Positions 32,541 through 32,985 of a DNA stretch of 64,000 nt are shown piece by piece (within the stretch, counting starts at the first letter, position 1; each line of letters begins with the position of its first letter). Location: the sequence record NC_054918.1; one strand, given 5' to 3'. The position numbers and the translations under genes were made by a program. Below the pieces are notes generated by a model. The model saw nothing but the letters and a program-made list of their open reading frames with translations, searched no databases and had not been told where the DNA came from. The stretch is from Escherichia phage vB_EcoM_G4498.

Positions 32541-32651
32541 TTAGTAAATTGATTTACCAAAGTATTTGTACCAAGTCGGACGTTGATCAATTTTTTCATC
32601 TAAGCGTGCTTGATTTATCGCAATGGACGCTTCGGACGGGTCATAATTTCC
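32541..32651 (-). pseudogene. denV: denV (endonuclease V, pyrimidine dimer glycosylase) 3' remnant, last ~36 codons only
   Basis: translation [36 protein letters not shown] matches the T4 DenV C-terminus as recalled; upstream sequence is promoter/IP-gene DNA, not denV. Confidence 0.6.
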
Positions 32652-32671
32652 TCCAAGTAGTTGATGAATGT

Positions 32672-32701
32672 ATAGTATCAAAACCCTTGGAGGAAGTAAA
32701 C
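32672..32701 (-). promoter_or_regulatory. T4-type early promoter (-35 GTTTAC, -10 TACTAT) inside the denV-remnant ORF
   Basis: minus-strand GTTTACTTCCTCCAAGGGTTTTGATACTATACATTC. Confidence 0.45.
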
Positions 32702-32703
32702 AA

Positions 32704-32985
32704 CTATTTTTCTGAAGCGCCTGAAATATATTTTTCAAGACGTTGTTTCATCAGCGAGCCGTTCTTAGCGATTTCTTCCGGTTTATCGCACATACGCAAC
32801 AAGGCTTCAAGCTTAACGATATCACTGGTGCGCTCAAATTTGCGAGTATCTATCTTACTAGCAAGTTCAGAAATACGTGCTAATAGACTTTCAGCTTCAA
32901 CCAAAGCTGCACCTAGCTTAGTTGCAAATGTGTCAGTAGCTTCGTTAAGAATAGATTCTGATAAAAATTCACTATATGTTTTCAT
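32704..32985 (-). CDS. internal-protein-like protein with capsid-targeting leader (about 93 aa)
   Basis: N-terminus [11 protein letters not shown]; ATG overlaps the stop of e (ATGA). Confidence 0.55.

Follow-up and report, generated by a model that had tools for sequence, protein, structure and literature searches.

A 310-bp deletion between short direct repeats has very probably made denV a pseudogene in the T4-like phage vB_EcoM_G4498

Introduction

T4 denV, the v gene, encodes endonuclease V, a pyrimidine-dimer DNA glycosylase-AP lyase. Phages T2 and T6 lack the v-gene function and for this reason are reported to be roughly twice as sensitive to UV as T4 (Streisinger 1956; Harm 1963). The complete T2 genome (AP018813) contains no DenV-like sequence (best tblastn E=4.6), and its gene e is followed by a gene encoding a 157-aa internal-protein-like (Ip-like) product of the DUF7412 type, as is also found in the DNA described here. 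Gene functions named in this T2 record seem unreliable, the Ip-like gene being labelled "valyl tRNA synthetase modifier", for example. In T6 (MH550421), no DenV match was found in the 17 kb around e; gene e (6018-6512 and neighbours) abuts regB, and the ipIII-ipII-denV-64.0-63.x block of T4 is missing. A literature search for the denV status of T2 and T6 or for a truncated denV in Tequatrovirus returned nothing usable. On the mutational side, deletion between short direct repeats is a textbook mechanism in T4, and spontaneous T4 deletions with such endpoints are reported from rII, for instance (Pribnow et al. 1981; Singer & Westlye 1988).

Here we describe the denV locus of Escherichia phage vB_EcoM_G4498 (NC_054918.1) within a window of 64 kb, which is a stretch of a T4-like (Tequatrovirus) genome. 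A sequence-only reading of this DNA had proposed that denV survives as a 3' remnant whose 5' part was replaced by an early promoter and an Ip-like gene. Alignment with intact loci from related phages leads to a different account of how the remnant arose.

Results

The 65-aa ORF ends in the C-terminus of DenV

The pieces of denV that can be recognized in the window are the following.

32541..32648, - strand: 3' remnant of denV, 35 codons and a TAA stop still in the gene's original frame (homology to DenV aa 102-137 and alignment to intact alleles)
32615..32644, - strand: original denV start codon and codons 1-3 (MTR), opening a frameshifted 9-codon ORF (read from the sequence; the ATG aligns with the denV ATG of W143, JK42, G2133 and RB69)
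32636..32648, - strand: deletion junction with the single surviving repeat copy AATTATGACCCGT (alignment to intact alleles)
32650..32654, - strand: denV Shine-Dalgarno sequence GGAGG, retained (sequence and alignment to intact alleles)
32672..32701, - strand: native denV promoter-like sequence, retained (GTTTAC, 18 nt, TACTAT preceded by TG; homologous to the T4 denV upstream region)

The 65-aa ORF at 32541..32738 (- strand) from which the remnant had been recognized is present in the window, and its C-terminus is that of DenV, as the sequence-only reading had it. Over its residues 24-65 the ORF aligns with T4 endonuclease V residues 95/96-136/137 (PDB 1vas and 2end; E=1.8e-14). In tblastn, T4 DenV, a query 100% identical to X04567, aligns through its aa 96-137 with window positions 32544-32669 (74% identity, E=2.7e-16), its sole match across the 64 kb. 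For the RB69-type DenV of W143 the alignment covers aa 102-137 with 86% identity (E=6.9e-17), and positions 100-138/139 of the PHROG 1183 (endonuclease V) profile are covered by the remnant (E=1e-7). The homology to DenV is thus real and far beyond chance. A Pfam search of the 65-aa ORF found no Pyr_excise domain, which is expected because the remnant is a 35-residue fragment.

The upstream part of the ORF is of another nature. In residues 1-29 the ORF runs through the last part of the upstream gene with its stop codon, then through the denV promoter-like sequence and ribosome-binding site; the "G" of "GNYDP..." and the residues before it correspond to the Shine-Dalgarno region and have no denV origin. 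These first 29 residues are therefore non-coding, the product of a mechanical read-through, and the remnant itself (32541-32648) has no in-frame start codon bearing a ribosome-binding site.

A single gap bounded by a 13-bp repeat separates the locus from intact alleles

Base-by-base alignment of the window with W143 reveals near-identity on both sides of a single clean 310-bp gap located inside denV, the flanks being about 97-100% identical to intact loci. The absence of some 100 N-terminal codons, noticed earlier, is confirmed and can now be delimited: the missing 310 bp take codons 4-106 with them, while everything from the promoter-like sequence through the ribosome-binding site to the ATG and codon 3 is kept. 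A direct repeat of 13 bp, AATTATGACCCGT, marks the ends of the gap; intact alleles have two copies of it 310 bp apart. Copy 1 spans the ribosome-binding-site spacer, the start codon and codons 1-3, copy 2 spans codons 102-106, and the window has one copy exactly at the junction, with no foreign sequence there.

The match between the two copies varies among intact alleles. In JK42 they are perfect (13/13, spacing 310) and constitute the only direct repeat of at least 10 nt in the gene region, whereas the match is 12/13 in G2133 and 11/13 in W143 and RB69 (spacing 310). A perfect repeat of at least 13 nt arose in 58 of 20000 shuffles of the 521-nt JK42 gene region. Alignment of the alleles detected no such 13-bp repeat in the denV of T4.

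Because 310 (3x103+1) is no multiple of 3, the retained ATG (32644-32642) now opens a frameshifted 9-codon ORF that reads ATG ACC CGT CCG AAG CGT CCA TTG CGA TAA, i.e. MTRPKRPLR and a stop.

Taken together, the remnant is very probably a denV pseudogene created by a 310-bp intragenic deletion between short direct repeats. The ancestor would have had an RB69-type denV with the sequence AATTATGACCCGT present twice, 310 bp apart; recombination or replication slippage between the repeats would then have removed one copy and the intervening 297 bp, which would have frameshifted the start codon and left the last 35 DenV codons startless. As to the process itself, we infer slippage or short-homology recombination.

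The promoter-like sequence and the Ip-like genes are native neighbours of denV

The genes surrounding the remnant are all on the - strand.

33508-33963, - strand: nudE
32982..33470, - strand: gene e (T4 lysozyme), used as synteny anchor (gene list and relatives' loci)
32704..32985, - strand: gene for a 93-aa internal-head-protein-like product, upstream of denV (phrog_3499, E=1.2e-46)
32274..32534, - strand: gene for an 86-aa internal-protein-like product, the native downstream neighbour, whose ribosome-binding site overlaps the denV stop codon (TAAGGAAAAATG)
31631-32212, - strand: IpIII-like gene
31049-31522, - strand: gene for the 157-aa Ip-like DUF7412 product (phrog_3155)

On the model that follows from the sequence-only reading, a cassette made of an early promoter and an Ip-like gene was inserted in place of the 5' two-thirds of denV through shuffling at the Ip locus. 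Such a scenario finds some ground in the location of denV within a polymorphic internal-protein region, in the gene order (e-ipIII-ipII-denV in T4 versus e-Ip-like-denV-Ip-like-ipIII in the window) and in the MKTYQEFI N-terminus shared by Ip genes, a possible mediator of exchange. However, W143, JK42, G2133 and RB69 carry the same 93-aa gene and the same GTTTAC...GATACTATA sequence, almost base for base, directly upstream of a full-length denV. In RB69-type loci the 93-aa gene natively sits just upstream of denV, and in W143 an intact 137-aa denV is directly preceded by e and the 93-aa gene and followed by the 86-aa gene. Since the same promoter-like sequence also precedes T4 denV and the order is the same in intact relatives, the promoter-like sequence and the Ip-like gene are native neighbours and not an insertion. 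Moreover, the denV ribosome-binding site, ATG and codons 1-3 are still present, and the junction is devoid of foreign sequence. Neither the replacement of the 5' part nor a cassette insertion or recombination as its cause is therefore borne out, both elements adjoining intact denV in relatives and the window differing from intact loci only by the 310-bp gap. As alignments to intact loci show this gap only, cassette insertion was rejected, and we consider it extremely improbable.

The designation "promoter-like" is based on the homology to the region upstream of T4 denV and on a resemblance to the T4 early-promoter consensus. The potential denV -10 annotated in X04567 lies within the stretch homologous to it. 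A generic sigma-70 scan did not score this sequence; the same scan found a strong promoter upstream of the ipIII-like gene, at 32269-32241. Following the deletion between repeats that we favour, the surviving promoter-like sequence would presumably still drive the downstream internal-protein genes.

Several other features of the neighbourhood were recorded. Gene e and the 93-aa Ip-like gene share an ATGA at 32982-32985, in which the stop of the former overlaps the start of the latter; this suggests translational coupling between the two genes. The 3-kb neighbourhood of the remnant has no whole-length match in the phage collection, the closest Tequatroviruses showing 92-98% identity with partial coverage, and a search of Rfam with 31500-33600 gave no structured RNA match at E<=1. 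Phage BF15 is the closest relative with the same deletion (identical junction; 93-98.6% identity to the window in aligning blocks). The 157-aa DUF7412 Ip-like gene (window 30969-31626) has no counterpart in BF15, which has a 303-bp (100-codon) ORF at this position, where W143 annotates ipII; this difference is an internal-protein cassette polymorphism adjoining the denV remnant. Farther away, at 29672-30034 (- strand), a 120-aa ORF ending in the glycyl-radical motif RVSGYAV corresponds to T4 ORF 63.1/Y06I and has homologues in Shinka, B1.1 and W143 that bear the annotation "autonomous glycyl radical cofactor".

The deletion is found in 13 other phages

A 41-nt junction probe, unable to seed on intact alleles, retrieved the identical junction in 13 GenBank records representing 12 phages: G8 (two records), BF15, Phaginator, F27, 235Ecol030PP, JM10, JM17, FL12, FL18, FL23, FL44 and B1.1. 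The same deletion, with a junction differing by one base (ATGTCC), is present in Shinka, which brings the total to 13 other phages. Among the records read, JM10 and F27 belong to Mosigvirus and the remaining carriers to Tequatrovirus. The remnant is unannotated in most carrier records and appears as a 46-aa "endonuclease" in B1.1, JM17 and FL18. Scans of IMG/VR with the junction and with the 3' end of the Phe allele returned one contig only, of 169,650 bp, and added nothing to this list.

This distribution bears on whether the gap might be a sequencing or assembly artefact, namely a collapse between the 13-bp repeats. Repeats do flank the missing segment, but 13 bp is far too short to collapse an assembly, and some deleted copies have private secondary mutations. 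Furthermore, 13 phages that were sequenced independently share the junction (their origins include Poland, Denmark and Germany), which for all practical purposes excludes an assembly artefact; we give this explanation next to no credence.

The deleted copies fall into at least four haplotypes, which differ at the junction, in residues of the remnant and in an extra 1-nt deletion.

Window, BF15 and B1.1: junction ACC; Asn, Asp, Phe
F27: junction ACC; Asn, Ala, Tyr
Shinka: junction TCC; Ser, Ala, Phe
JM10 and FL23: junction ACC; Ser, extra 1-nt deletion, Phe

The 3' end of the intact G2133 denV is identical to the Shinka remnant, and the G2133 repeats differ at exactly the A/T position that distinguishes the two junctions. 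Both junction types could therefore stem from a G2133-like parent, with a crossover to one side or the other of the mismatch. As a marker of a single origin, the shared Tyr->Phe codon was considered and rejected, intact G2133 also having Phe and the deleted F27 having Tyr. On the whole, the haplotype pattern fits recurrent deletion and a single deletion followed by frequent T-even recombination equally well. That the 13-bp repeat makes RB69-type denV a recurrent deletion hotspot is a possibility that we put forward tentatively and with more doubt than conviction; the four haplotypes would then go back to several separate losses, which habitats that make UV repair useless (gut, sewage) may have favoured, as opposed to one event spread by recombination.

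The Ser->Asn and Ala->Asp changes and the 1-nt deletion of JM10 and FL23 are confined to deleted copies. They represent a handful of changes over about 95 nt, and this confinement is consistent with relaxed constraint and decay. In JM10 and FL23 (~1644-1823), the downstream 86-aa Ip-like gene has a 2-nt insertion (GAAATCAAAACACC versus GAAATCAACACC) and is annotated as a 59-aa ORF; it also appears to be decaying in these two phages.

The remnant is predicted to be devoid of glycosylase function

The earlier claim that denV is reduced to a non-functional 3' remnant is supported, codons 4-106 being gone and the frame broken. Full-length DenV is a single-domain fold of about 137-138 aa that the 35 C-terminal codons remaining in frame do not cover. 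Its catalytic residues, according to the 2END and 1VAS structures, are the N-terminal amine of Thr2, Glu23 and the Arg3/Arg22/Arg26 cluster. In the window the M-T-R codons survive, but the deletion takes codons 22, 23 and 26, and a frameshift follows codon 3. The catalytic core is gone, including Glu23, the Arg cluster and every helix up to roughly residue 101. No glycosylase is expected to be made from this locus because the whole catalytic core is deleted.

A second copy was searched for by tblastn with T4 and RB69-type DenV (E<=10). No second denV was found in the 64-kb window, where T4 DenV, the query that the sequence-only reading had suggested for this purpose, matched the remnant and no intact copy; nor was one found in the complete 167.8-kb genome of BF15, which likewise yielded the remnant only. 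For the part of the G4498 genome outside the 64 kb, an intact denV would be excluded by analogy with BF15 only.

One may nevertheless ask whether the remnant is a functional small gene whose product, be it a C-terminal DenV fragment of 46-65 aa or the 9-aa peptide, binds DNA or acts in regulation. The ORF is open through the remnant, some pipelines annotate it (as noted above for B1.1, JM17 and FL18), the allele persists in 13 phages and, in the 1VAS structure, the DNA contacts of full-length DenV involve its C-terminal WYKY region. Against this, the only in-frame starts are TTG codons situated in the upstream gene or in the -10 element, without a properly spaced ribosome-binding site, and 35 residues are far below the DenV fold. 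In addition, the remnant has gained the non-conservative S->N and A->D changes and is frameshifted in JM10 and FL23, and the positions of the repeats explain why exactly this stretch persists. A functional product is thus very unlikely, and the remnant is best regarded as a pseudogene.

Given the natural loss of denV in T2 and T6, a rise in UV sensitivity like that of T2 or of T4 v-minus can reasonably be predicted for the window phage.

Discussion

The denV remnant of G4498 is an ordinary, already-circulating pseudogene allele and involves no new system or mechanism. For annotation purposes, the ORF 32541..32738 should be recorded as a denV pseudogene rather than as the "endonuclease" that some GenBank records make of it. 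Under UV, carriers of the deletion should respond as T2 or T4 v-minus do, a prediction that bears on UV disinfection, environmental persistence and the handling of therapeutic phages. The locus is also a clear case, found in nature, of a T-even gene lost through short repeats. Unlike the T4 allele, RB69-type denV carries a built-in deletion-prone repeat. The only mildly novel point is that this repeat may be a recurrent deletion hotspot of denV. If true, recurrence would explain, through a specific mutational mechanism, why T-even phages differ in UV repair, as was observed long ago.

Compared with the T4 gene, the remnant is 74% identical over its homologous part (86% to RB69-type DenV), and the upstream promoter-like sequence, the ribosome-binding site and the first three codons of T4 denV are homologous to those of the window. 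The two loci differ in position, T4 denV being situated after ipII while the window locus comes directly after e and the 93-aa Ip-like gene, as in RB69. Besides its intact denV, W143 has a 20-residue scrap of the denV C-terminus (1109-1168; 70% identity over aa 118-137, E=6e-5) at the site that denV occupies in T4, flanked by ipII and the ORF 64.0 homologue; this suggests a past relocation or duplication of denV relative to the Ip genes.

Mosigvirus ESCO47 (OM386662) resembles the window in having a denV fragment only, with no other match in its record. Its fragment (1501-1629), annotated "endonuclease V N-glysidase", keeps DenV residues 1-36 at a T4-like site downstream of ipII, so that the lesion is a different and independent one. 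T2 and T6 are, like the window phage, wild T-even phages without a functional denV. They lost the whole gene in larger rearrangements, whereas the window locus underwent a small intragenic deletion that leaves both gene ends visible. A mechanistic parallel is offered by the spontaneous rII deletions of T4, whose endpoints fall exactly in a short direct repeat with one copy kept, as in the window; those deletions are laboratory mutants, while the denV deletion is a natural allele circulating in two genera.
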